Source: Bacillota bacterium (GTDB lineage: Bacteria; Bacillota; Sulfobacillia; RBS10-35; JAJYVN01). From it: a stretch of DNA of 64,000 nt. The first letter of the stretch is position 1, and the number at the start of each line of letters is the position of its first letter. The translations under genes and the position numbers were made by a program. Shown piece after piece: positions 2,582 through 51,528 of this stretch. The notes under the pieces were generated by a model that worked only from the letters and a program-made list of their open reading frames with translations, did not search any database and was not told where the DNA came from. Location: assembly GCA_021803205.1 (NCBI GenBank), contig JAJZMB010000162.1, forward strand, positions 20,718 to 84,717. Reading direction: 5' to 3'.

Positions 2582-2607
2582 CGGCCTCGCAAGAAAGGAC
2601 TTTGGCA

Positions 2608-2794
2608 GCGCCGTCCTGGTACTGTCCTCCGCACTGGCAGGTCCTGGGCCGGGGTGCGGACTCATGAAGCGGCGAATCGGGCCTGCCCGTCCGTGCACAC
2701 CCTCTGGGGCCGCCTTTCCGACCTCTGAGCCGATGTTCCGGGCCGTCGTCGGCGCCAACCGCTACCAGTGCGGAGGACAGTGCTAGGACGGCGC
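2608..2794 (+). repeat. MITE-like repeat element, copy 1 (about 30 bp terminal inverted repeats)
   Basis: Terminal inverted repeats gcgccgtcctggtactgtcctccgcactggcag ... ctaccagtgcggaggacagtgctaggacggcgc. The highly conserved core ggcctgggccggggtg.ggactcatgaagcggcgaa.cgggcctgcccgtccgt.cac.ccct.tggggccgcc is shared with the copies at 11720-11888 and 40304-40473. Confidence 0.8.
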
Positions 2795-3367
2795 AAGGGG
2801 GCCCCGCGTACGTCGGCGGATGTCTGACTCGGCCAGGGCTACGGCCAAGGCGTCGTCGAGGTAGCCGACGGGGAACAGGAAGTCGTCGATGGCGTCGACG
2901 GCCAGAAGGAAGTAGAGGACGGCGCTCCCCGCCACCAGGCGCACCTCGCGTGGGGCGCCGCCCCCTTGCTGGTAGAGTTGGCCGAGGGCCAAAAGGCGTT
3001 CGACCACTGGCCCCCTGGCGCCCAGGGCCGCCAGTTTCCGTTCCAACCCATCCCGCGCCAGGGCGAGGGCTTCGTCCGTGGCCGCGTATTCGCGCAGTCG
3101 CTCCAGCCGTTCGGCGACATGCGCGATGAGTTCGGGAGGCGCCGGGTCGACCCCCAGGGTGCGCAGCGCCTCCACAGGGTCGTCCATGGGTGGAGCGATG
3201 CCCGCAGCACTCAGAAGAGCGGCGGCCGGGCAGCCGAGCGCCGGTGCCAGTGCCCGCAGCAGGGCGGGGGTCGGCCGGGTCTGTCCGGAGAGCAGGCGCG
3301 ATACGCTGGAGTGGCTTACCTCCGCGGCCCTCGCCAAACCGCGTAACGACAACCCCGCCTCGGACAT
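2783..3367 (-). CDS. XRE-family HTH domain fused to a DUF1232 (YkvA-like) membrane domain
   Basis: The N-terminus MSEAGLSLRGLARAAEVSHSSVSRLLSG is XRE-HTH-like. The C-terminus LVAGSAVLYFLLAVDAIDDFLFPVGYLDD matches the DUF1232 motif. Only the 3'-most 585 nt of the 561-aa track ORF looks genuine. Confidence 0.5.
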   Translation of the reverse strand: MSEAGLSLRGLARAAEVSHSSVSRLLSGQTRPTPALLRALAPALGCPAAALLSAAGIAPPMDDPVEALRTLGVDPAPPELIAHVAERLERLREYAATDEALALARDGLERKLAALGARGPVVERLLALGQLYQQGGGAPREVRLVAGSAVLYFLLAVDAIDDFLFPVGYLDDALAVALAESDIRRRTRGPLAPS

Positions 3368-3623: not shown

Positions 3624-4448
3624 CTATGATACGACCGCCCGCAGCGATTCGGACAGGTGGAGGGCCGAGGCGTTTTCGCCCTCGACCCGGTAGGCCCACG
3701 GCCCCTCGTTCCAGAGCACCCATACCGCCGTGTTGTCCGGGGACAGCGCCTGCACGACGGTGCCGGCGGTCCCGCCAGGGACCGGAGACCGGCCGCCGGG
3801 CACCTGGGCGACGAGCTTGTGCGCGTACGGCAGCAGTGCCTTGGCATCCCGGCCCAGTCCCGTGGTATCCACGACCTCGTACACCCAGCCACCCGTCCGC
3901 CAGCGCAGGAGCGAGTAAAAAAGGTTGGCACTCTGGGCGTAGAAGGTGCCCACCAGGCCCGGAGCGATCGGTTGCGCGACGCCGTCGGCGACGGGCTTGG
4001 CATAGGCCGGGGTGGGCCCGAGTGCGCCCGGGAAGCCAGCCCGGACCGCGCCCAGCAGATCGGCTTGAGGGACGCCCTTGAGGCTGTTCGGCGCCGCCGG
4101 GGTCGGGGATGTCGCGATATCGACGCTGTAGGTGTGGCTGTCCGCCTGCACCGTGAAGTAGTACGAGCGCCCGGTTCCAGCGGCGGGCAGCCACGACGGC
4201 AGGAGCAGAGGAGGCCCCGCCGGGCGAAGCAGGGGCAAGACCGGCGCGAGCACAGATGCGGCCGCGCCCGCGGGTGTGGTGATGGCGCTTTTGACGGGCG
4301 CCGGGGACGACGTGGCTGCGGACCCCGCCGTCGACGAGGCTGGTAATTTGGAGCGGGAAGGCCGCGTGGAATGCGGCCTGTGCCCACATCCTCCGGCGGT
4401 AAGCGCCGCCGCGACGAGCAAGGCAAGAAAGGCGCGACGCCGTGCCAT
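3624..4448 (-). CDS. hypothetical lipoprotein
   Basis: MARRRAFLALLVAAALTAGGC is a signal peptide with a lipobox (LTAGGC). The mature part is Ser/Ala/Pro-rich. GC3 is high. Confidence 0.5.
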   Translation of the reverse strand: MARRRAFLALLVAAALTAGGCGHRPHSTRPSRSKLPASSTAGSAATSSPAPVKSAITTPAGAAASVLAPVLPLLRPAGPPLLLPSWLPAAGTGRSYYFTVQADSHTYSVDIATSPTPAAPNSLKGVPQADLLGAVRAGFPGALGPTPAYAKPVADGVAQPIAPGLVGTFYAQSANLFYSLLRWRTGGWVYEVVDTTGLGRDAKALLPYAHKLVAQVPGGRSPVPGGTAGTVVQALSPDNTAVWVLWNEGPWAYRVEGENASALHLSESLRAVVS

Positions 4449-6497: not shown

Positions 6498-7883
6498 ATG
6501 CAGGTCATCATCATCGGCGGCGGTCCCGGCGGGTACGCCGCGGCCATCGGGCTGGCCCAGGGCGGTGCGGATGTGCAGCTGGTCGAAGAGGCTCTGCCCG
6601 GCGGCACCTGCCTTCATCGGGGCTGCATCCCGACCAAGGCCCTGCTGGAGACGGCCCGCCTGGCGCGCGAACTTGCCGCGGCCGCCGACTTCGGCCTGTC
6701 GTCCGCCCCGGTGTCGGCGGTGGACTGGTCGGCGGTCCGCGCGCGTCAGCGGAAGGCGGTCTCCGCCCTGACGCAGGGGCTCAGCCAATTGTTGAAAGCC
6801 AACGGCGTCGTCGTGGTCCACGGCCGGGGGGGCCTGCTGCCGCCCGATTCCCTCGGTGCCGTCCCGGCCGTCCGCGTCGCCGGGCCGGACGCCGGCGACC
6901 TGCGCGCGGACGCCGTGGTCCTGGCGCCCGGGTCGCTGCCGGCGCGCCCGCCGGTGCCCGGACTCGATCTTCCTGGTGTGGTCGACAGCGACGGCCTCCT
7001 GGAGATCGGTTCGCCGCCGCGGCGCCTGGTCATTGTGGGTGGCGGCGCGATTGGCTGCGAGTTCGCCACCGCGCACGCGGCCCTCGGCGCGGAGGTTGCC
7101 ATTGTGGAGGCCCTGCCGCAATTGCTACCCGCCGCGGATGCCGAGATCGCCCGCCGCCTGCAGTCCGCCTTCCGCCGGAGGGGTATCGCGGTGCACACGG
7201 GAGCGCGCCTGGTGCACGTGGAGCCCGGGCCGGAGGTGCATGTCGAAACGGCCGCCGGGATGTTGGCGTTACCGGCGGACACGGTGCTCATCGCGACCGG
7301 GCGCCGCCCCCGCACGGCGGGCATGGGTCTGATGGAGGCCGGCCTCGCCTTCGGTCAGGGGGGCGGTATTGTGGTGGACGAGAGCTTCGCCTGCCCGGGG
7401 GTACGTGGTGTGTGGGCACTGGGCGATGCACTCGGCGGGGTCGGATACGCGCACGGGGCGTTCCGTCAGGCCGCCACCGTGGTGGCGGCAATCTTGGGCC
7501 GTCCCCTGCCCCCCATGCCTCCCCTGCCGCACGTGGTCTATTCCGCACCGGAGGTCGCCTGGGTCGGGGCGGCGGATGGCGCGCGCGTCGCGCGGGTGCC
7601 GTTTGCGGCACTGGGACGCGCCCATGCGGCCGGGGACGTCGACGGCCTGTACAAGGTGGTCGCGGACGATGCGGGGCGTGTGTGCGGAGTCCATGTGATC
7701 GGCGCCCATGCGACCGAACTCCTGGCGGCGGGTTGCATCGCGGTGGCGCGCGGGCTCAGCCTGCAGGAACTGGGATCGGCGCCGCTGCCCCACCCGACCT
7801 GGGGTGAGGGTCTGGTGGAGGCTGCGCAGTTGGCGATGGGCGCGCCCCTGCATCTGCCCCCGCCGTTGCGCCAGCGCTCTTGA
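6498..7883 (+). CDS. FAD-dependent pyridine nucleotide-disulfide oxidoreductase, dihydrolipoyl dehydrogenase family
   Basis: The FAD-binding GxGxxG (IIGGGPGG) is present. The redox-active disulfide GGTCLHRGCIPTK is present. A second Rossmann fold (VIVGGGAIGCEFA) and a C-terminal dimerisation region are present. The RBS GGAGGAGG precedes the ATG. Confidence 0.65.
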   Translation: MQVIIIGGGPGGYAAAIGLAQGGADVQLVEEALPGGTCLHRGCIPTKALLETARLARELAAAADFGLSSAPVSAVDWSAVRARQRKAVSALTQGLSQLLKANGVVVVHGRGGLLPPDSLGAVPAVRVAGPDAGDLRADAVVLAPGSLPARPPVPGLDLPGVVDSDGLLEIGSPPRRLVIVGGGAIGCEFATAHAALGAEVAIVEALPQLLPAADAEIARRLQSAFRRRGIAVHTGARLVHVEPGPEVHVETAAGMLALPADTVLIATGRRPRTAGMGLMEAGLAFGQGGGIVVDESFACPGVRGVWALGDALGGVGYAHGAFRQAATVVAAILGRPLPPMPPLPHVVYSAPEVAWVGAADGARVARVPFAALGRAHAAGDVDGLYKVVADDAGRVCGVHVIGAHATELLAAGCIAVARGLSLQELGSAPLPHPTWGEGLVEAAQLAMGAPLHLPPPLRQRS

Positions 7884-9871: not shown

Positions 9872-11419
9872 ATGCGGCTTCTGGGTGTGTCTGCCATGAG
9901 AGAACTCGACCGCCGCGCGGTCGAGGAGCACGGGTTGTCCGTCAGCGCACTGATGGAGGTGGCCGGGGCGGCCTTGGCCCGCGAAGCGGCAGAGCTGCGC
10001 CGCGGCGCCGGTCTCAGCGGCCCGGCGGTCCTGCTCTGCGGCGGGGGCAACAACGGCGGCGACGGTCTGGTGGCGGCGCGCCACCTTGTGGCTGCGGGTA
10101 TACCGGCGCAGGTGCTGCTCTGGGCGGATCCCGCCCGCACGGGTCCGGTGCCGCAGGCCAATCTGCGATTGCTCGGCCCCGCTCGCGTTCCGGTGATCGA
10201 ACACCTCAGCCCGGCGGATGCCGGGCGCATCTGCCGCGAGGCGGGGGTCATTGTGGATTGCCTTTTGGGCACCGGATTCCGGGGAACCGTGCGGGCCCCG
10301 CTGCCGGACATCATTGCCGCGGCTAACGGCGCGGGCGCACCGGTGCTGGCGGCGGACATTCCTTCGGGTTTGTCGGGCGAACTGGGCTTACCGCCCGACG
10401 GCCCGTGCATCCGAGCCCGGCGCACGCTCTGCTTCGGTGCGGTGAAGGCAGGGTTGTTTTGCGAGCCCGGGCGGGGATACGCCGGTGAAGTGCGCCTGGA
10501 AGCGCTGGGCATCCCCGAGGCCGCATGGGCAGGCCTTGATGTCGTTCGCGGGCTGGCCGCTTCGGGGGTGGCCTCGCTCCTGCCGGTGCGCCGCGGTGCA
10601 GGACACAAGGGCACCTACGGTACCGTGCTGGCGCTGGCGGGTGCGGCGGGCTTTACCGGAGCGGCCGCCATGTGTGCGGTTGCGGCCCTCCGGGCCGGTG
10701 CCGGACTCTGCCAGGTGGCGTGCCCGGCAGCGGTGGCCGACGTGGTGGCGGCGAAGGTGACCGAGGCCACCATCCGTCCCTTGCCGGGAGATGCGCAGGG
10801 CGGGCTGGCGGAGTCCGCCGCCGATCGCCTGCCCGCCCTGGTGGGGGGCGCGGAGTCGGTGGTGGCTGGGCCGGGTCTGGGCCGCGGACCGGGTGTGCGG
10901 GCCGTCGTGACCCGGCTCCTCCAGATCTATGGCGGGCCGGTGGTGCTGGACGCCGACGCCCTGAACGCAGTGGAACTGCAAACCATTCGCGAGGCCGCCG
11001 GCCGTGTGATCCTCACGCCTCATCCCGGCGAGGCCGGGCGTCTGCTGCGCTGCTCCACGGGCGAGGTTCAGGCGGACCGGCAGGCCGCGGTGCGGCGGCT
11101 GGCCGTTGAGGGTCGCTGTGTCGCCGTGCTCAAGGGAGCCGGCACGCTGATCGCCGCCGCTGACGGGCCGATCTGGTGCAACCCCACCGGCAACGACGGC
11201 ATGGGCACGGGTGGGAGCGGTGACGTGCTGGCGGGATTGATAGCGGGGCTCTGTGCCGAGGGCGCGGAACCGCAGGCAGCAGCTACGGCGGGCGTATACA
11301 TCCACGGGCTGGCCGGCGACCTGGCCGCAGAGGAACTCGGGCGTAGGGCGATGCTCGCCGGGGACATCCTCCGCCACTTCTCAGGGGCATTCCGTATGCT
11401 ACTCGGGGCTGGGGCATAG
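9872..11419 (+). CDS. nnr: bifunctional NAD(P)H-hydrate epimerase / ADP-dependent dehydratase
   Basis: The N-terminal YjeF_N domain (LLCGGGNNGGDGLVAARHL) is present. The C-terminal carbohydrate-kinase-like domain (GHKGTYGTVLALAG ... GGSGDVLAG) is present. The ATG at 9872 is 1 nt after the acpS stop. Confidence 0.8.
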   Translation: MRLLGVSAMRELDRRAVEEHGLSVSALMEVAGAALAREAAELRRGAGLSGPAVLLCGGGNNGGDGLVAARHLVAAGIPAQVLLWADPARTGPVPQANLRLLGPARVPVIEHLSPADAGRICREAGVIVDCLLGTGFRGTVRAPLPDIIAAANGAGAPVLAADIPSGLSGELGLPPDGPCIRARRTLCFGAVKAGLFCEPGRGYAGEVRLEALGIPEAAWAGLDVVRGLAASGVASLLPVRRGAGHKGTYGTVLALAGAAGFTGAAAMCAVAALRAGAGLCQVACPAAVADVVAAKVTEATIRPLPGDAQGGLAESAADRLPALVGGAESVVAGPGLGRGPGVRAVVTRLLQIYGGPVVLDADALNAVELQTIREAAGRVILTPHPGEAGRLLRCSTGEVQADRQAAVRRLAVEGRCVAVLKGAGTLIAAADGPIWCNPTGNDGMGTGGSGDVLAGLIAGLCAEGAEPQAAATAGVYIHGLAGDLAAEELGRRAMLAGDILRHFSGAFRMLLGAGA

Positions 11420-11719
11420 GCGCGGGCGCGGATGCCGCCGTCCGTCCGACACCGGATGGCTGCGGCTGGCGGGGCCCGCCAAGTGCGGTGAGGTGTCTCG
11501 GGCGCGTGGGGCGGACGCCTCCTTCACCGGTGGGCGGGAAGCGCCGGCGGTTGGAGCCGGACCACCCCACGGTCCTCGTCAACCCAGACTTCCACGCCTG
11601 CCGCCCCGCCCTGCCGCACCGAGAACAGAAACGTGCCGGTGGTGTGCTGCCCGTCCTGGGCGGATACAGTACCCGCACTCCGGAGCCCGGGGATCCGGGG
11701 TGGTCGCTCCAGTCACCCT

Positions 11720-11888
11720 TAGTACTGTCCTCCGCACGGGCAGCAGGTGGCGCCGGCGACGGCCAAGAACATCTGATCATAGGCCGGTGAGGCGGCCCCA
11801 AAGGGTGTGAACGGACGGGCAGGCCCGATTCGCCGCTTCATGAGTCCCCACCTCGGCCCAGGCCTTGCCAGTGCGGAGGACAGTATTG
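11720..11888 (-). repeat. MITE-like repeat element, copy 2 (inverted orientation)
   Basis: It is the reverse complement of the 2608-2794 element: agtactgtcctccgcacgggcag ... ttgccagtgcggaggacagtattggg, with the same conserved core. Confidence 0.8.
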
Positions 11889-12132
11889 GGAGATGAGCCG
11901 GCAATGAAGAGTCGCGGCTCCAGGGCGGCGGCGCAGCAACGGGCAGCTGGAGTTTGCCTGGGCGGTACTGCCGGAGCCCAGGGACCCAGCAAAGTCGTCC
12001 AGTGGGCCAAGCGGCGGGGGGCCCGGACGGTCGTGACCCACAAGCGCTGGTGGTGAGCACCCGCCCTGACGTGACTTTGCCGGGACCCTGTGTCGGAGCC
12101 CACCAGGGCTTTTCTTTTTCCGCCAAATCGGG

Positions 12133-12220
12133 TACGTCTAGGACGGCGATACAAAAGTCGGTCTCCACAGCGGCCGTGAACCGTGGACCCTTGGGGGACA
12201 AGGGATTCGGAGCAGTGGCC
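12133..12220 (+). repeat. conserved approximately 90 nt intergenic motif, copy B (immediately 5' of the DUF929-VKOR operon)
   Basis: agtcggtctccacagcggccgtgaaccgtggacccttgggggacaagggattcggagcagtggcc is about 80% identical to 19967-20031. The upstream 25 nt are also related. It is followed by the small hairpin gcaaaag-cgga-cttttgc. Confidence 0.6.
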
Positions 12221-12283
12221 TCGCAAAAGCGGACTTTTGCGTGCGGCGAACTCGCCGTGATCGTCTTATCAGGGGGAATTTCG

Positions 12284-13204
12284 GTGCCGCAGAAACCAAA
12301 ATACGCCGCGCGCCGTGGCGGTGCCGGTTACCGAGCGGCTCAGCGACGCGGCTCGAACAACACAGTGTGGTGGATGTTTGGGGCGGTGGCGCTCGCGATC
12401 CTGGTTCTGGTCGTGGTGCGGCTGCTGGTCCCGAGCGGAGGCCCCGGTTCCTCCCAGGACGGCAAGCCGGTGGCCGCTGACGTCCTGATGAACCTGACCA
12501 GCGTGCCGTTATCGGCCTTCGATAGCGTGGGCATCGGTCCCGCCAAGGGCAGCGGGAAGGTCATCACACCCGCCGGTGGAACAACGACGCTTTGGAAGGA
12601 CTCCACCGGCAAGCCGGTTGTCATGTACGTCGGCGCCGAATACTGTCCGTATTGCGCAGCCACGCGCTGGGCACTCGTGACCGGGCTGTCGCGCTTCGGC
12701 ACGTTCAAGGGGTTGGAGTACATGACGTCCAGTCCGACCGACGTGTATCCGGACACGCCGACCTTCACCTTCGTCCATGCGACCTACAGCAGTCCCTACG
12801 TGGACTTCCAGCCCGTCGAGGAGCAGGGGGAGATCATCGGACAGCCTCTGCAGAGCCTGAACGCCCAGCAATCCGCCTACCGGGCCAAGTACGAAGCCGC
12901 GCCGTATTTCCCCGGTGCCGTCCCGGGTCAATACGATTATCCCTTTGTCGACGTCGCCAACCGCTACCTGTGGGAGGGGGCGTTCTATAGTCCGTCGGTC
13001 CTGGCGGGTCAGCTCTGGCCAGCCATTTCCCAGGCCGTGCACGCCGGGAAGGCCCCGGTGGCGCAGAGCGTTCTCGGGGGCGCGAACGTCCTGTCGGCGG
13101 CGATCTGTGCGGTGGACGGCGGGCGGCCCGCCCCGGTCTGCCAGAGCAGCGGCGTCAAGGCCGCCGCGACAACGCTGCCGAAGGCGCAGGGCGCCGGGGC
13201 ATGA
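12284..13204 (+). CDS. DUF929-family extracytoplasmic thioredoxin-like protein, membrane-anchored
   Basis: GTG start with the RBS AGGGGGA. An N-terminal TM helix is present. The CxxC motif [12 protein letters not shown] is present. Confidence 0.6.
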
Positions 13205-19942: not shown

Positions 19943-20031
19943 GTTGCCTGGGACGACCATGCGTGAGTCGGTTTCCATACCGGCCCCGAAGCGTGGACCG
20001 TTGGGGGACAGGGGGATTCTGCGCAGCGGCC
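19943..20031 (+). repeat. conserved approximately 90 nt intergenic motif, copy A
   Basis: agtcggtttccataccggccccgaagcgtggaccgttgggggacagggggattctgcgcagcggcc. It ends 3 nt before the stop of the minus-strand GDSL gene. Confidence 0.6.
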
Positions 20032-20033
20032 AC

Positions 20034-20699
20034 TTAGGCTTCCTGGTCCCACCGGAAGTCGATTGCTTCAAGGAAGACCCGCGCGAGCACCATGTGGCCT
20101 ACAGGGTTCGGATGCACCCTGTCCAAGGCCAGTGTGGCGGGGTAGACGTGCTGGAGGACGCGGTCGAACGCTGCCTGCGTGTCCACGAAGACCGCTTGAT
20201 GATCGGCCGCGACGCGCCGCACCACATGTCCGTACCGATCCATCTCTGCTCGCATCGGATCCGCCCGGTTCGGCTCGATGTAGAAGGGCGTCATCAGGAC
20301 GAGCCCCTTCAGGGTGGGCCTCGCCTGGCCGATCAGTTCTCGCAGCGTCGCCTCGTATTCTTCGAGGTGGACGTGGTTTTCGCGTTGCAAGGGCTCGTCA
20401 AACTGCCGCCAGACGTCGTTGGTCCCGATCATCACCGACAGCCAGTCCGGCGCCAGATCCAGGACGTCCCGCTGCCAGCGCGCCTTCAGAGTGCGCACGG
20501 TGTTACCGCTGACACCCATGTTGACGACGCGGATGCGGAGTGCCGGATAGCCGGAGCTCAGTAGAGCGTTCACCTGCGCCACATAGCCTCGCCCGAGCGC
20601 CTCGTCCCTTCCCTCGCCCACCGGCTGCTTCCGCGCGCAGTCGGTGATGGAATCTCCGATCATAACCAGCTTCTGGTGTGCCCCGATCTTCACGCGCAT
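20034..20699 (-). CDS. SGNH/GDSL-family hydrolase
   Basis: Block I is VMIGDSITD. The catalytic DxxH (LDRVHPNP) is present. Confidence 0.7.
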   Translation of the reverse strand: MRVKIGAHQKLVMIGDSITDCARKQPVGEGRDEALGRGYVAQVNALLSSGYPALRIRVVNMGVSGNTVRTLKARWQRDVLDLAPDWLSVMIGTNDVWRQFDEPLQRENHVHLEEYEATLRELIGQARPTLKGLVLMTPFYIEPNRADPMRAEMDRYGHVVRRVAADHQAVFVDTQAAFDRVLQHVYPATLALDRVHPNPVGHMVLARVFLEAIDFRWDQEA

Positions 20700-37704: not shown

Positions 37705-37712
<8 letters not shown>

Positions 37713-39768
37713 GACCTTCCTGCTGGAGATCGGCGTGGAGGAACTGCCCGCCCGCTTCTGTGCCCCGGCGCTGGAGCAAGTCAAGACCAAGGGGGAGGCG
37801 CTCCTGAGGGAATTGCGCCTGTCCTCGGGGGTCTCGCGCACCTATGGCACGCCGCGTCGCCTGGCATGGTTGGTGGAAGGACTCTCCGACCGTCAGGCGG
37901 ACGCGGAAACGGTTGCCCGGGGACCTGCCCGTGCCGCCGCCTTCGACGACGAGGGCAAACCGACGCGGGCCGCCGAGGGGTTCGCCCGCAGCCAGGGGGT
38001 GCCCGTGACCTCTTTGACCGTCGAAGGGGTCGGCGGCCGGGAGTACGTCTTCGCGAGAAGGACCGAAGCCGGCCTGCCGACCGAGATTGTCCTCGCCAAG
38101 GCGCTGCCGGGCCTCATCGCCTCCCTGGACTTCCCCCGGACCATGCGCTGGGGGACGGGGGACTTCCGCTTCCCCCGTCCCATCCGCTGGCTGGTCGCCC
38201 TGCTCGGCGCCGAGGTGGTCCCCTTCGACATCGAGGGGCTGGCCTCGGGGCGCACCACGTACGGGCACCGGACGCTGCATCCCGGTCCGGTAACCCTTAC
38301 CCGCCCCGAGGTATACGTGGAAGCGCTGCGTGAGGCGCACGTTCTGGTGGACGTGGACGAGCGCCGGCGAACCATCTGGACGGGGGTCGCCGCCGCTGTC
38401 CAAGCCGTCGGCGGTGTTCCCTGCCCCAATGGCGAACTGCTGGACGAGGTCACCCACATCAACGAGTGGCCGACCGCCTTCGTCGGCGCCTTCGACGCCG
38501 CGGCGCTGGAGGTGCCGGAGCCGGCCCTGGTGACCGTGATGCGCGTTCACCAACGGTACTTCCCGGTGGAGGACACCGACGGGCGGCTCCTGCCGCACTT
38601 CGCTGGCGTGCGCAACGGCGGCGCCCACAACCTGGCCGGGGTGGCGGCCGGCAACGAGAAGGTGCTGGCTGCGCGCTTCGCGGACGCGCGGTTCTTTTAC
38701 GCGGAGGACCGCAAGCACCCGCTGTCGGCCTTGGTCGGGCGCCTGGACACGGTGGTGTTCGCGGAGGGCCTCGGCACCCTGGCCGACAAGACGGCCCGTC
38801 TGGTGCGCCTCGCCGGGGCCCTGGCGCGGCGGGTCGGCGCGGACCCGGCTGTCGTGGAGCGGGCCGCCCACCTCTGCAAGGCGGACCGGCTGACCCACCT
38901 GGTCTATGAGATGCCGGAACTCGAGGGGACGATGGGCGCGTACTACGCGGCCGCGGACGGCGAGCCCGACGCGGTGGCCCGGGCCATCGGCGAGCACGTG
39001 CTGCCCCGGGCGGCGGGCGGCGAACTGCCCCGCACCGCCGCCGGACAGGTGCTGGCGGTGGCGGACCGCCTCGACACGCTGGCGGGCCAGTTCATGGCCG
39101 GGCGGGCGCCGAGCGGCAGCGCCGACCCACTGGGGCTCCGGCGGGCCGGATCGGTCCTGGTGCGCATCCTGGAGGACGCCGGTTGGGACCTGCCCATCGC
39201 AGGCGCCGTGCGGGAGGCCGAGGGCGGCTACCCCGCGGGGACGGGGGAGGCGGGCGCCCTGCTGCCGGAGTTCCTGGCCGGCCGCCTGCGCGGGCGCCTG
39301 GAGGAGTTGGGCTTCCGCTATGACGTGGTCGACGCCGTGCTCGCGGCGGGGACCGACCGGGTGGCGGACGCGGTGCGCCGGTGCCGGGCGCTGACGGCGG
39401 CCGTCGGCGCGGCGGGCTGGGAGGACACAGTGACGGCTTTCAAGCGGGCCGGTAACCTGGCCCGACAGGGGGAGCCGGGCGCGGGGGTGGACCCGGCGGC
39501 CCTGGGCCATGAGTCCGGGCAGGCGCTGTTTGCCGCTTTGGGCGCAGCGCGCGAAGCGGCGGGCGCGGCGCTGCAGGCGGGCGATTACGCCGGGGTGCTG
39601 GCGGCGACGGCGACGCTGCGGCGACCCGTCGACGAATTCCTCACGGCGGTGCTCGTCATGGACCCCGACCCGGCCGTGCGGCGCAGCCGCCTCGCCCTGC
39701 TCGCGGCCGTGGCGGCGATCCCGGCAACCGTCGCGGATCTGGGGCGGCTGCAGGGCGGGGAGCGGTAG
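37705..39768 (+). CDS. glyS: glycine--tRNA ligase beta subunit
   Basis: The GTG start overlaps the glyQ stop. [18 protein letters not shown] is present. It has the typical GlyS length (687 aa). Confidence 0.8.
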
Positions 39769-40303
39769 GGGATGCCAGGGGCGGTGCCCCACCACTCCCC
39801 CGTGCGCCCGTCCGGTGGCCGTGTGGGCACCGGCGCAGGCGATTGCTCACCATGGCGTTCGCCCGGGTTCCCGGTCGACCCTCTGTGTTTGCTCGCGACT
39901 TGAGCTGCATCCCACCCCCTGCCATACCGATCCTGTTTCGGCCATCGACCGGCAGTCTGCACTTTTTCCTGACCTCCTCCACGGTGGCCGGCGCTCTCAA
40001 CAGCAAACGAGCCTGCCTCGTGAGAAGGAGTCGCAGTGGCGCGCGGAGAAATAGTACAGGTGTTCTGGATGGAGAGTGGGGCCTGGTGGCTGCCCATGGG
40101 CTCCTTGCAGAGGTCGCGAGGAATCCTCCTGGCAAACAGCCCACGGGGCGATTCGTGCTGATCGGTCCAGATCAGGAAACTGGGGCCACCTGTACGCCAG
40201 CGCCCCTGGCAGAGTTCATGGCAGAATAGATCGTCGCCGCAGGTGGCAATCTTACCTCCCCACGCATGCTTGATCCTGCAGTGGGCGGCGGGAATCCCCT
40301 GCT

Positions 40304-40473
40304 TAGTACTGCCCTCCGCACTGGCAAGGCCTGGGCCGGGGTGGGGACTCATGAAGCGGCGAACCGGGCCTGCCCGTCCGTTCACGCCCTTTGGGGCCGC
40401 CTTTTCGACCGCTGAGCAGATGTTCCGGATCGTCGCCGTCGTCAATTGCTACCAGTGCGAAAGACAGTATCAG
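40304..40473 (+). repeat. MITE-like repeat element, copy 3
   Basis: tagtactgccctccgcactggcaagg ... ctaccagtgcgaaagacagtatcag, with the same conserved core. The right TIR is slightly degenerate. Confidence 0.8.
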
Positions 40474-40693: not shown

Positions 40694-41590
40694 ATGCGCA
40701 TCGATCTCGCGGGCAGGGTGGCCGTGGTAACCGGGGCGGCCCGGGGTATCGGCGCGGCCACGGCGCGGCGGCTGGCCCGCTCGGGGGCGGCCGTCCTGGT
40801 GACCGACACCTCCGACGAGGCCGGGCGCGGAGTCGTCCGGGCCATCGTCGCGGAGGGGGGTACGGCGGCGTACCTGCACGCCGACGTCGCGCTGGAGTCC
40901 GATATCGCATCGATGCTCGGCGAAGCGGCGCGCCTCTGGGGACGGCTCGACATCCTGGTCAACAACGCCCACTTCGAGGTGCGCGGTTCGGTCCTGGAAG
41001 TATCCGCCGAGGACTGGGACCGTTCCTACGCCGTCCTGGTGCGCGCCCTGTTCCTGGGCGCCAAGCACGCGGTGCCGCACATGCGCTCCGCCGGCGGGGG
41101 CAGCATCGTGAACATCTCCTCCGTGCTGGGGCGCCAACCGACGCGGCGTTATGCGACGTACACCAGCGCCAAGGCGGCGGTGCCGCAGCTCACCCGCCAA
41201 CTCGCATTGGACTTCGGACCCGATGGCATCCGGGTCAACACGATCACCCCCGGGATCATCGACACCGGGCGGGACGCGGACCCGGACCGCGATTCCGAGG
41301 CGGCGCGGCTGACCCCGTTGCTACGGACGGGGGTGCCCGACGACATCGCGAGCGCCATCTGCTTCCTCGTGTCCGATCGGGCGGGCTTCATCACCGGCGC
41401 CGACCTGCTGATCGACGGCGGCGCGACGATTCCGTGGTTCTGGGAGCCGGTGGAGGGTGCGCGGCGGCTGTGGGGGGCGAAGGGGTCGGCCGACGGCGGT
41501 GGCGAGGTGGCCGCGGAGGTGGAGCGGCTGGCGCAAAGGGAGAGGTGGCAGCGGACGGTGGAAGGGAACCCGAGTACCTGGCGGGGATGA
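40694..41590 (+). CDS. SDR-family oxidoreductase
   Basis: The glycine-rich loop is VTGAARGIGAA. NNAHF is present. The catalytic YTSAK is present. The PG motif is ITPGII. It has a C-terminal extension of about 45 aa. Confidence 0.7.
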   Translation: MRIDLAGRVAVVTGAARGIGAATARRLARSGAAVLVTDTSDEAGRGVVRAIVAEGGTAAYLHADVALESDIASMLGEAARLWGRLDILVNNAHFEVRGSVLEVSAEDWDRSYAVLVRALFLGAKHAVPHMRSAGGGSIVNISSVLGRQPTRRYATYTSAKAAVPQLTRQLALDFGPDGIRVNTITPGIIDTGRDADPDRDSEAARLTPLLRTGVPDDIASAICFLVSDRAGFITGADLLIDGGATIPWFWEPVEGARRLWGAKGSADGGGEVAAEVERLAQRERWQRTVEGNPSTWRG

Positions 41591-43850: not shown

Positions 43851-45693
43851 GTGCAAGAACTCCGGCGACGGGTCGATATCGTGGACCTGATCGGTGCCGT
43901 CGTCGCGCTGCGACCTGCGGGGCGCGAGTTCGTCGGGCTCTGTCCCTTCCATGAGGAACGGACGCCGAGTTTTCATGTATCCCGGGACAAGCAGGTCTTC
44001 CATTGCCACGGATGCCACGCGGGCGGCGATGTTGTGACCTTCGTCATGCGGCGGCAGGCCCTGGGCTTCGCGGAGGCGGTCGTTGCCCTGGCGGTGCAGG
44101 TGGGAATGACCCTGCCGGATCCCCGTCCCCTGTCGGCCGAACAACGTCGACGCCTCGGACTGCAGGAGGAACTCTACGCCGTGTGTGCAGCCGCGGCTGA
44201 CTATTTCAAAGATAGCCTGCTGCAGGCGCAGGGGAGCGACGCCATCGCCTATCTCCGGCGGCGCGGGGTCGACGGCCCTACGGCGGAGCGCTTCGGCCTC
44301 GGATTCGCGCCAGCGGACTGGGAGGGCCTCGGGAGGGCGCTCGCGACAAAATTCCCGCCGGAGCGTCTGCTGCAGGCTGGACTCCGGCGGGAGCGCGGTC
44401 CGGGGCGCGGCGCCTACGACTACTTTCGAGGCCGTCTCATGTTTCCGATCTGGGATGAGCGGGGAAGGGTAGTGGCGTTCGGAGGGCGGGCGTTGGCGGC
44501 CACGGACGGGCCCAAGTACCTCAACTCTCCGGAAACCCCCATTTTTCGAAAGCGGCAGACCCTGTATGCGTTGCACCTGGCCCGGCCGGCCATCGAACGG
44601 GCGGGCCGTGTCGTCGTTGTAGAGGGGTATATGGACGCCCTGACCTGTCACCAGTTCAGGTTCGACCACGCGGTTGCCCTTCTCGGCACGGCGTTGTCAG
44701 ATGCGCAGGCAGGAATGCTGATGCGGTGCGCAGAACTCATCGTATTGGCTTTTGATGCCGATCTCGCCGGAGGCGTGGCAACGGAGCGGGGGTTGGCCGT
44801 TCTCCAGGAACGCGGCGCCCAGGTTGCCGTTGCGCCGATGCCCGCAGGTGCAGATCCCGATGAGGCGTTGCGGGCTGAAGACGGTCCGCGGGTTTTTGGT
44901 GCGGCACTGGATGCCGCCGTGCCCCTGATCCATTATCTTGTGCGCAGGGCGATCGGCGAAGCCAATGTCGCCCGCATGGCTCCCGAGCAGCGCTGGCGGT
45001 TGGCGGAGCAGATGGTGCCTTTCCTGGCTCGGGTGCCGTCCGTGATGGGAAGAGGGACGCGGCAGGAATATATCGAACATGTGGCCCGCGCCCTTGGCTT
45101 CCGTGAGCCATACGACTTGGCCCGCGCTGTCGAGAGGCACGCGGAAAAGGGTGGCGGGCATAGAAATAGAAACACTTGGAACCCTACCCCGGTAGGGGAA
45201 GGGTTCGGCCGTTCCGCTGTGCGCCCCGCATGGGATGCGGCCGAAGAAACGATTCTGGCCGTCTGCCTGCGTTCCGGCGAGTGGCTGCGCCAACTGCTAC
45301 CGGAGCTCAGTATACACGATTTCCGCGGTGCATCGCACAAGGCCCTTGTTGCGAGATTGCTCCAGGGGGGCGTGCCCGTAACGGACGGTGGGGCGGCGGG
45401 AGGGGCGGAGGCTCCGGGTTCCGCGCTTCTCAACGAGGAGGAGGATCCCCAGATCCGGAGCACCATCGCGCGGCTCCTGGCGTTGGAGTTGCCGGAGGCT
45501 ACGGCCGCAGTGTTGCGGCAGTGCCTCGCCACCATGCGGCGCGCGCGATTGCAGGAGGATGCCGGAACGTTGCGCGCGGAGCAGCGGCGGCTCGCGGCCG
45601 AGGGTTTGGACAGATCCGCGGAGATGCTGGCCGTGACGCGGCGGTTGTTCGAATTGACGACGGAGCTGGCCCGCTCCGTCAGGGGTGGCGGCG

Positions 45694-45722
<29 letters not shown>
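43851..45722 (+). CDS. dnaG: DNA primase
   Basis: The zinc-binding domain [32 protein letters not shown] is present. The TOPRIM domain ([10 protein letters not shown] ... AFDAD) is present. A GTG start is proposed at 43851. The track ORF's 98-aa N-terminal extension is not primase-like. Confidence 0.8.
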
Positions 45723-47172
<1,450 letters not shown>

Positions 47173-49982: not shown

Positions 49983-51041
49983 TCAATCGAGGTGTTCCCG
50001 CAGGCGCAGGCGGAGGGCGGCATAGTGCAGCTTGCGCAGGGCGCTGGACTCGATCTGGCGTACGCGCTCGTGAGAGATGCCGAGGTGCCGTCCAACCTCC
50101 TTGAGTGTGCATTCCCGGTGTCCCGCAAGGCCGAATCGGAGACGGATCACCTCGGCCTCGCGAACAGGTAATTCTTGAAGGGCCGCGTGGACCGCTTCCC
50201 GCAGCAGTGCGCCTTCGGCGGCGCCAGCGGGTGCCGTGGCGCCTTCATCGGCGACCACGTCGGCAATGATCAGATCTTCGCTGCCCTCCACCGGTGCGTC
50301 TAGACTGATGATCTCCCGTTGCACCCGCAAGGCTCTGCTCAGTACACCGGCATCCAAGACCGACTGGAGCGCGTCGGCCACCTCGCTGCTCGAGGGCCAC
50401 CGACCCAACATTTGCATCAACTGCCAGCGGGTGCGCCGCACCTGGCGTACGGCCTGGTCCAGATGCTCAGGCAGGCGGATGAGGTGTGCCTCGCTGGTGA
50501 TCGTGCGGGCCACGGCCTGGCGAATCCACCATATGGCGTAGGTGCTGAAGCGCAGGCCGTTGCGCTCATCATACTTTTCCGCGGCGCGCAGCAATCCCAG
50601 GTTCCCTGCCTGGATGAGATCGGCGAGTTCCAGGCCGCGGCCCAGGTACCTTGCGGCGACCGACACCACCAGCCGGAGGTTTGAGATTACCAGACGCCGC
50701 TGCGCCTCCTGGTCTCCGGCGCGGACCTGCGCCGCCAGGGACGCCTCCTCCTGGGGGGACAGGAGCCGTGCCCGGCCCACGTCCTGCAGGTAGAGGCCTA
50801 CGACGCCGGGACGATCGACGAATTTCCAGCTTTCGCGCACCGGTCGCCCCCGGCTGCGGCGATCCTCTGGCGGCTGCGGGGCCAAACGACCCGTGGCGGG
50901 GCCGGCGGAGGCGTCGTCCGCGGCCACCGGGGCGCACATCGTGGCATCGGCGGGCTCGTATGGCCCGTCTCCGTCCACTGGCCGCGAGGGGCGCCAGCGG
51001 AGCCGCCCGTGTAGGGAAACGCGAGTGCGGGCGCTCGCCAT
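49983..51041 (-). CDS. sigma-70 family RNA polymerase sigma factor (group 2/3-like, regions 1.2 to 4)
   Basis: DLIQAGNLGLLRAAEKYDERNGLRFSTYAIWWIRQAVAR is region 2. LQELPVREAEVIRLRFGL ... LKEVGRHLGISHERVRQIESSALRKL is region 4. The start is uncertain (51041 or 50939). Confidence 0.65.
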   Translation of the reverse strand: MASARTRVSLHGRLRWRPSRPVDGDGPYEPADATMCAPVAADDASAGPATGRLAPQPPEDRRSRGRPVRESWKFVDRPGVVGLYLQDVGRARLLSPQEEASLAAQVRAGDQEAQRRLVISNLRLVVSVAARYLGRGLELADLIQAGNLGLLRAAEKYDERNGLRFSTYAIWWIRQAVARTITSEAHLIRLPEHLDQAVRQVRRTRWQLMQMLGRWPSSSEVADALQSVLDAGVLSRALRVQREIISLDAPVEGSEDLIIADVVADEGATAPAGAAEGALLREAVHAALQELPVREAEVIRLRFGLAGHRECTLKEVGRHLGISHERVRQIESSALRKLHYAALRLRLREHLD

Positions 51042-51528
51042 GCCCACATTGCCTTCACACCGTTCCGAAGGACGCGCCGCCAAGAGGTAATGCACCCTCC
51101 GTTGGCTCGGTGCCGGAAGTAGCGCCGGGCTGCCCGAGAGACCCCTGTGAAAGGCTACGCCCAACTTCCTACCATTACCGACCTATCGACCGCGGATCCG
51201 CCGTACACGGTGGGTGGTTCGACCGACAAGACGCAAGCCTCTTGCAGGCAGCCCAGAATCAACAGGCATACCGCAGCCAGGTACACGAGCGGGGGTCTGC
51301 CGCGCCACCGTCCGCCATCGCCACCGCTGGACACACCCCTGCAGTGTTTCTGATGTTGACTGATGGCGTACCCTGCTGCCAGTCAGGACTTTCCCGATAC
51401 GAGGACGCGGGGGTTCCACACCACTGCCCGACCCGTTGGGGTTGGGGGCGACTCCGGCCATACTGCGGCAGCGGCCCGCATATCGGTGGCCGCGACCGGC
51501 CGCCCGATGCAAGGGCGCGCGTCCCCTC

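Follow-up and report, generated by a model that had tools for sequence, protein, structure and literature searches.

A MITE family flanked by CTAG-like tetranucleotides in an uncultured high-GC Bacillota lineage

MITEs derived from IS630/Tc1-mariner elements, such as RUP of Streptococcus pneumoniae and Correia of Neisseria, are 100-160 bp long, carry terminal inverted repeats (TIRs) of 20-26 nt and lie between genes in many copies, at TA-containing targets of which only the TA is duplicated. Another small element, MITEPsy1 of Pseudomonas syringae pv. phaseolicola, is non-coding, 100 nt long, ends in 18-nt TIRs and is derived from the IS5 family, with ISPsy2 as its probable parent (PMC3189936). 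MITEPsy1 inserts at CTAG or YTAA and duplicates 4 nt, its transposition was shown experimentally, and it is often adjacent to other mobile elements and confined to one lineage (PMC3189936). IS5 of E. coli (IS5 family, IS5 subgroup) has a 5'-YTAR-3' target and generates a 4-bp duplication (PMC5009759).

Here, we describe element A, a 163-bp repeat with three copies in the window (i.e. the whole 64-kb stretch of DNA analysed, ~69% G+C), which is a genuine, previously undescribed MITE family of a well-known kind and, as such, not surprising. Very probably, element A is a non-autonomous DNA transposon that depends on a DDE transposase supplied in trans and has a 4-bp YTAR/CTAG target like that of IS5. 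A MITE had already been proposed by the first-pass annotation, and this reading now has support from several sides: (i), the element carries TIRs and 4-bp flanking duplications; (ii), it is dispersed over ~13 unrelated loci and split into subfamilies; (iii), it contains no functional transposase ORF and shows neither coding nor RNA constraint and, (iv), it is absent from the loci fetched from relatives. An IS5-like transposase is suggested by the target and the duplication length, and it would act in trans.

The three copies seen by the first-pass annotation are real: when oriented alike, they align over 163 bp without a gap and with pairwise identities of 86-88%, and a repeat search of the window returned arms of 163-166 nt with 85-88% identity. 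It was also right that one copy (copy 2) is flipped and that all three are intergenic, as borne out by the flanking gene calls, which place them in housekeeping regions: copy 1 is bordered by two convergent genes, those of the S8 peptidase (1409-2581) and of HTH/DUF1232, whereas the neighbours of copy 2 are nnr/yjeF (9872-11419) on one side and a DUF929 gene (12284-13204) on the other, and those of copy 3 are glyS (37705-39768) and an SDR gene (40694-41590). The orientation of the element relative to its neighbouring genes varies among copies. An invariant 19-mer, GGACTCATGAAGCGGCGAA, occurs three times in the window versus 0.02 expected, and a 20-nt terminal sequence, TACTGTCCTCCGCACTGGCA, gives six matches with at most three mismatches, namely the two ends of the three elements, versus none in 100 shuffles. 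Element A ends in TACTG...CAGTA and its TIRs, found in all complete copies, start with TACTGYCCTCCGCACTGG. Inverted ends of roughly 30 bp had been claimed; the inverted ends stand but they measure only ~18-20 nt. Copy 1 alone displays a 33-nt inverted repeat (2608-2640 / 2762-2794), which is in fact made of the TIR, the 4-bp target duplication and ~8 nt of abutting ends of another repeat family (family B, see below), an appearance created by GACGGCGC at 2787-2794 on one side and a family B fragment on the other. The positions of all these features are given in Table 1.

Table 1. Copies of element A, their 4-bp flanks and the co-resident repeat families. Positions refer to the window, except where a fetched locus (L) is named; flanks are given as left / right, those of element A in element orientation.
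Feature	Position	Strand	Description
Element A, copy 1	2620..2782	+	163 bp; TIRs 2620-2639 and 2763-2782
Copy 1, left 4-bp flank	2616..2619	.	CTGG; target-site duplication, 1 mismatch with the right flank
Copy 1, right 4-bp flank	2783..2786	.	CTAG; CTA is the TAG stop of the minus-strand HTH/DUF1232 gene (2783-3367)
Element A, copy 2	11723..11885	-	163 bp, inverted; TIRs 11866-11885 and 11723-11742
Copy 2, left target-site duplication	11886..11889	.	CCAA
Copy 2, right target-site duplication	11719..11722	.	CTAA
Element A, copy 3	40307..40469	+	163 bp; TIRs 40307-40326 and 40450-40469, the right TIR with 3 mismatches
Copy 3, left flank	40303..40306	.	TTAG
Copy 3, right flank	40470..40473	.	TCAG
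Element A flanks, L006			CTAG / CTAG
Element A flanks, L050			CTAG / CTAG
Element A flanks, L055			CTGG / CTGG
Element A flanks, L051			CTGG / CTAG
Element A flanks, L058			CTAA / CTAA
Family B	12142-12250		~109-116 bp, largely palindromic; flanks CTAG (12138-12141) / CTCG (12251-12254)
Family B, short variant	19952-20033		Flanks CTGG / TTAG
Family B, right-end fragment	2582..2615	.	Abuts copy 1; nhmmer match 2580-2619, E=0.0036
Family B, elsewhere	L008:12770-12885; L009:12771-12885; L006:2136-2253; L051:10499-10614		
Family C	L057:660-840; also left of element A in L050 (~10322-10508) and in L055		~181 bp; TIR GGCGCGTCCATCAAGTCCTG; flanks CTAG/CCAG
Family D	11979-12090; L057:1246-1357		112 bp; 18-nt TIR CAGGGACCCAGCAAAGTC / GACTTTGCCGGGACCCTG

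A separate likeness to the right end of element A (GTCGACGTCGCCAACCGCTACCTGTGGGAGGGGGCG...) is carried by a 41-nt stretch inside the DUF929 gene (12947-12987, 76% identity), the orthologous position of which is L030:7489-7515 in a relative. This is probably a chance similarity in a conserved coding segment.

From three copies in 64 kb the first-pass annotation had concluded to a high copy number, and held that a mobile origin would be weakened if no relatives existed beyond these three. The second point is settled in favour of its reading: about ten additional copies, each at a different locus, were recovered, some from sister assemblies of the MAG species and others from two further high-GC Bacillota MAGs, giving ~13 distinct copies in all. 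When 185,579 species genomes were scanned for exact matches to the core 19-mer, three true copies were found in these two MAGs (FK2.bin20 and TL1-5.bin93, both named "Bacillota bacterium", 72-73% G+C), one complete (L006) and two cut by contig ends (L002 and L003), the three remaining matches being due to chance. Other copies were harvested by translating the consensus in all six frames and using the concatenated product as a query against the protein collection, which catches spurious ORFs lying over copies. Eight proteins matched and led to new copies in L050 (= L054), L051 (= L052, L053), L055 (= L056), L057, where the right end is deleted, and L058; those in L050/L054, L051 and L055 belong to the same species but lie on other contigs. 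In two assemblies (L008 and L009), the glyS locus is the same as in the window up to the middle of the element and then runs into different copies and different downstream DNA, revealing two further right halves. An nhmmer profile run over the ~240 kb of fetched sequence detected no further divergent copies. The eight complete copies are 81-95% identical and fall into subfamilies defined by shared variants (TACTGC + CACGCCC + CAATTGC versus TACTGT + CACACCC + CAACYGC).

A GlyS protein identical to that of the window is encoded on contig DAIBNK010000147.1 (MAG GCA_027418175.1) and in sister assemblies, and the Nnr protein of the window (P0001) is found in further sister assemblies (GCA_027418135/195/215/235, GCA_027332015 and several ENA assemblies). 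Because a SASP gene is present at the glyS locus and "Bacillota bacterium" MAGs are the only carriers among the species representatives, the host is an uncultured, spore-forming, high-GC Bacillota lineage, and an actinomycete, considered at first, is rejected. Copies 1-3 are present in all same-species assemblies examined, and no empty site for element A was found there. In relatives, the loci with an Nnr 86% (L030-L032), 80% (L033-L036), 72% (L045-L046) or 70% (L047-L049) identical to that of the window contain no copy of element A. The nnr-DUF929 spacer measures 71 bp in one of these loci (L033) versus 864 bp in the window, where small repeats account for 163 + 112 + 109 bp. Intergenic DNA of the relatives does not in general align with that of the window; when compared with the 86%-identical relative, this spacer is unalignable DNA, except for a conserved segment.

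It is this conserved segment that yields an empty site for family B, one of at least three more miniature families with CTAG-like borders (B, C and D). The window reads GGGTACGT-CTAG-[B]-CTCG-CC, versus GGGTACGT-GTAA-CC in L030 (~6778-6790) and GGGTACGA-GTAG-CC in L033 (~4430-4445), and this clean empty site indicates that small CTAG-flanked elements do insert in this lineage. Family B, the ends of which are GACGGCGCTGCAAAAGTCGG ... CGGACTTTTTGCGGCGGCCAC, often directly abuts element A with a CTAG common to both, family C abuts the left end of three element A copies, and family D is found in two differing flanking contexts. Of the 11 element A copies for which one or both sides can be checked, 8 abut B or C with a shared 4-mer in between, an expected outcome if every insertion, by duplicating its rare target, makes that target available once more. 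Stop codons are also found in or directly against the 4-bp flanks of small elements, namely those of the HTH/DUF1232 (2783-2785), GDSL lipase (20034-20036) and S8 peptidase genes (TAG at 2579-2581, abutting the border), so that the small elements sit exactly at the ends of these three genes.

The tetranucleotide involved is rare in this DNA: CTAG occurs 12 times in the window versus 181 expected from base composition (~15-fold depletion), and its presence at the borders of the elements is therefore not due to chance. YTAR sites number 46 in the window, of which at least six are at the borders of small repeats. The first-pass annotation had called for a check of target-site duplications. When four bases are read on each side of the eight complete copies in element orientation, all eight are flanked by 4-bp direct repeats, perfect in four and with one mismatch in the other four (4 mismatches over 32 positions). 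Since CTAG is a palindrome, however, a 4-bp duplication and a TA duplication with G...C as the outermost bases of the element would give the same flanks. IS630 prefers CTAG and duplicates TA, and most copies do have a G directly left and a C directly right of the 163-bp unit; element A could thus be read as a MITE of the IS630/Tc1-mariner type, GTACTG...CAGTAC, inserted into the TA of CTAG, and the family B copy in L009 (TTAG...CTAA) even fits a TA duplication better than a 4-bp one. We consider this reading unlikely: the non-palindromic flanks match as direct, not inverted, repeats, and in copy 2, copy 3 and L058 the base departing from G/C recurs at the same position of the opposite flank and not at the complementary one (Table 1). 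In addition, L055 has a TG instead of a TA, and the TA model is less parsimonious, requiring seven deviations versus four for the 4-bp model. Together, the non-palindromic flanks and this count favour a 4-bp duplication of a YTAR-like target, which element A would produce upon insertion.

A probable mode of spread may be proposed for element A. A DDE-type transposase encoded elsewhere in the genome would recognise the ~20-nt TIRs (TACTGYCCTCCGCACTGGCA) and move the element, integrating it at a CTAG-like (YTAR) tetranucleotide by a 4-nt staggered cut, the repair of which would leave the 4-bp direct duplication. Because CTAG is depleted and located mostly at gene ends, insertions would land between genes, often on a stop codon, and they would often hit a CTAG that already flanks another small element, building abutting arrays. 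The search for an autonomous IS with matching TIRs, advised by the first-pass annotation, gave none in the window or in the ~240 kb of fetched loci; a TIR scan of JGI metagenomes produced 19 matches, all chance or one orthologous locus, and no partner IS, and neither viral contigs (TIR scan) nor plasmids (blastn) contained a match. A scan of the window for the layout of an autonomous IS, namely YTAR-like pairs 60-3500 bp apart with inverted repeats just inside, retrieved the three copies of element A and, within a large ORF, one weak match. One other inverted repeat of the window (47047-47128 / 50027-50108, 82 nt, 73%) was considered as a pair of IS ends and rejected: it is the region 4 C-terminus common to two convergent sigma-70 paralogues (45685-47172, plus strand, and 49983-51164, minus strand).

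As several short palindromic intergenic repeat families cluster in this genome and a DDE partner was not found in the collections searched, it is tempting to think of a REP/REPIN-type palindromic element, spread by a RAYT (HUH/Y1) rather than a DDE transposase. We regard this as highly improbable. HUH/Y1 elements insert 3' of their target and are not known to duplicate it or to carry true terminal inverted repeats, whereas the CTAG-like 4-mer of element A stands on both sides as a direct duplication; moreover, a RAYT gene is found in none of the called genes of the fetched loci.

The first-pass annotation kept a structured small-RNA gene family as the alternative to a MITE, to be favoured by consistent strand-specific transcription with covariation. 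The predicted fold of element A is indeed very stable (-112 and -110 kcal/mol on the two strands, z about -6), an internal helix (columns 21-32 with 51-65) varies solely from G-C to G-U, and conservation is higher in the left 95 nt than in the right 68 nt (mean identity 89% versus 83%). Structured small RNA genes, or cis-regulatory RNA hairpins or terminators, kept by selection on RNA structure would account for these features. Nevertheless, we attach very little probability to them: (i), both strands fold equally well, as any DNA inverted repeat must. (ii), there was no match to Rfam at the gathering score over the window, nor at E<=1 over 11400-12400. (iii), the RNAalifold covariation term on the eight copies is positive (+0.99), none of the 17 pairs of the terminal helix shows a compensatory change, five of them departing only by broken pairs, and double changes affect 2 of 50 pairs, no more than in shuffles. 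(iv), the orientation relative to neighbouring genes varies, and a promoter-like or terminator-like site was sought in or beside copy 1 and not found and, (v), a gene family leaves the target-site duplications unexplained. The small-RNA alternative is thus rejected. As for the left/right asymmetry, which also affects the TIRs (3 changes in the left one versus 11 in the right one), it goes beyond simple neutral decay; under the MITE reading, its simplest interpretation is an unequal functional weight of the two ends for transposition.

A peptide shared by the copies had been noted, with the remark that it had neither start codon nor ribosome-binding site. This remark did not hold, as an ATG is present at element position 45, with a Shine-Dalgarno-like motif (GAGGTG/GGGGTG) 7 nt upstream, and opens a frame of 40 codons that ends in the right flank; the frame is nevertheless not a gene, since it fails the coding tests. 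Given the start and a frame that is open in most copies, one could argue for a small-protein gene family specifying a 40-aa peptide, MKRR(I/T)GPARPFTPFGAA...CYQCGGQY, for example a Cys-containing peptide precursor. We give this next to no credence. The minimum numbers of changes at codon positions 1, 2 and 3 are 20, 27 and 15, the third position thus changing least, and the frame is damaged in several copies: the ATG is an ATC in L055, a 1-nt insertion shifts the frame in L009, the stop is gone from copy 3, and neither L057 nor the copy behind P0130 retains the C-terminal half. The peptide profile had no match among 5.8 billion protein clusters, and the ORF profile, when run exhaustively with HMMER against 1.84 billion representatives, returned five unannotated ORFs, all overlapping element copies, and one weak match; homologues outside the element copies are thus lacking in these collections. 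The weak match (P0131) was discarded as an unrelated repetitive protein. That the frame stays open is trivial, because the copies have almost no indels. The 40-codon ORF of element A is, therefore, not coding. A parent transposase sharing the N-terminus of this ORF was sought by HMMER in the 1.84 billion representatives and none was found; that the Shine-Dalgarno-like motif and the ATG are a relic of the transposase start of a parent IS is plausible but unproven.

The well-kept left 95 nt (with the left TIR, the internal hairpin that tolerates G-U and the Shine-Dalgarno-like motif with its ATG) and the arrays formed with three other CTAG-flanked miniature elements in a genome that avoids CTAG leave a slender chance that element A is more than an ordinary MITE. 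It may have been exapted, for example to serve as a peptide or sRNA module or to terminate transcription in both directions between genes, or, given the lack of a partner in the public collections searched, its transposase may belong to a family that has so far no link to MITEs.

Right at element A, or inside it, contigs break off or switch, and this has practical consequences. In L050 and L054, both the copy and its right flank are identical, but the two diverge from the first base on the left (L050:10513 versus L054:4497); a rearrangement could explain this, as could a mis-join at the repeat or a second copy of identical sequence. Likewise, L008 and L009 diverge from L007 inside the element (12603-12765), and such divergence within a species, in or at the edge of element A, comes either from chimeric joins at the repeat or from real rearrangements. 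We also observed that copy 1 differs at up to five positions among assemblies of the same species (window versus L037-L041:2762-2924) while the flanks are nearly identical; most variant bases shift in the direction of the family consensus, suggesting that copies have undergone gene conversion or that assembly has mixed their consensus sequences. Finally, gene callers draw spurious ORFs of 180-290 aa across these elements (P0121-P0128). Metagenome assemblers may break or mis-join contigs at element A (L008, L009; L050 versus L054), and knowledge of the family helps to annotate genomes and to check assemblies of this uncultured high-GC Bacillota lineage. While it opens no new biological question, it adds an example in which several MITE families use the same rare tetranucleotide (CTAG) as their target and, as a result, accumulate beside each other and on stop codons.

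How does element A compare with the known systems? MITEs of the RUP/Correia type are, like element A, small, TIR-bearing, intergenic and multicopy, but a 4-bp duplication accounts better for the flanks seen in element A. IS5 shares with element A the YTAR target, the 4-bp duplication and a bias of its insertions towards non-coding DNA; however, it is a 1.2-kb autonomous element with a DDE transposase, whereas element A is transposase-less. The ends of IS5-family elements are usually GG/GA, so that the TA...TA ends of element A are atypical, and we take the sequence of its TIRs to be unrelated to IS5 ends. MITEPsy1 has no sequence similarity to element A, its length (100 nt versus 163 bp) and ends (GGAAGG... 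versus TACTG...CAGTA) differ, and it has experimentally observed transposition and a candidate parent IS, of which no counterpart was found for element A. MITEPsy1 is nonetheless the closest analogue of element A: both are small and non-coding, both carry TIRs and a 4-nt CTAG-like duplication, both have mobile elements as neighbours and both are restricted to one lineage.
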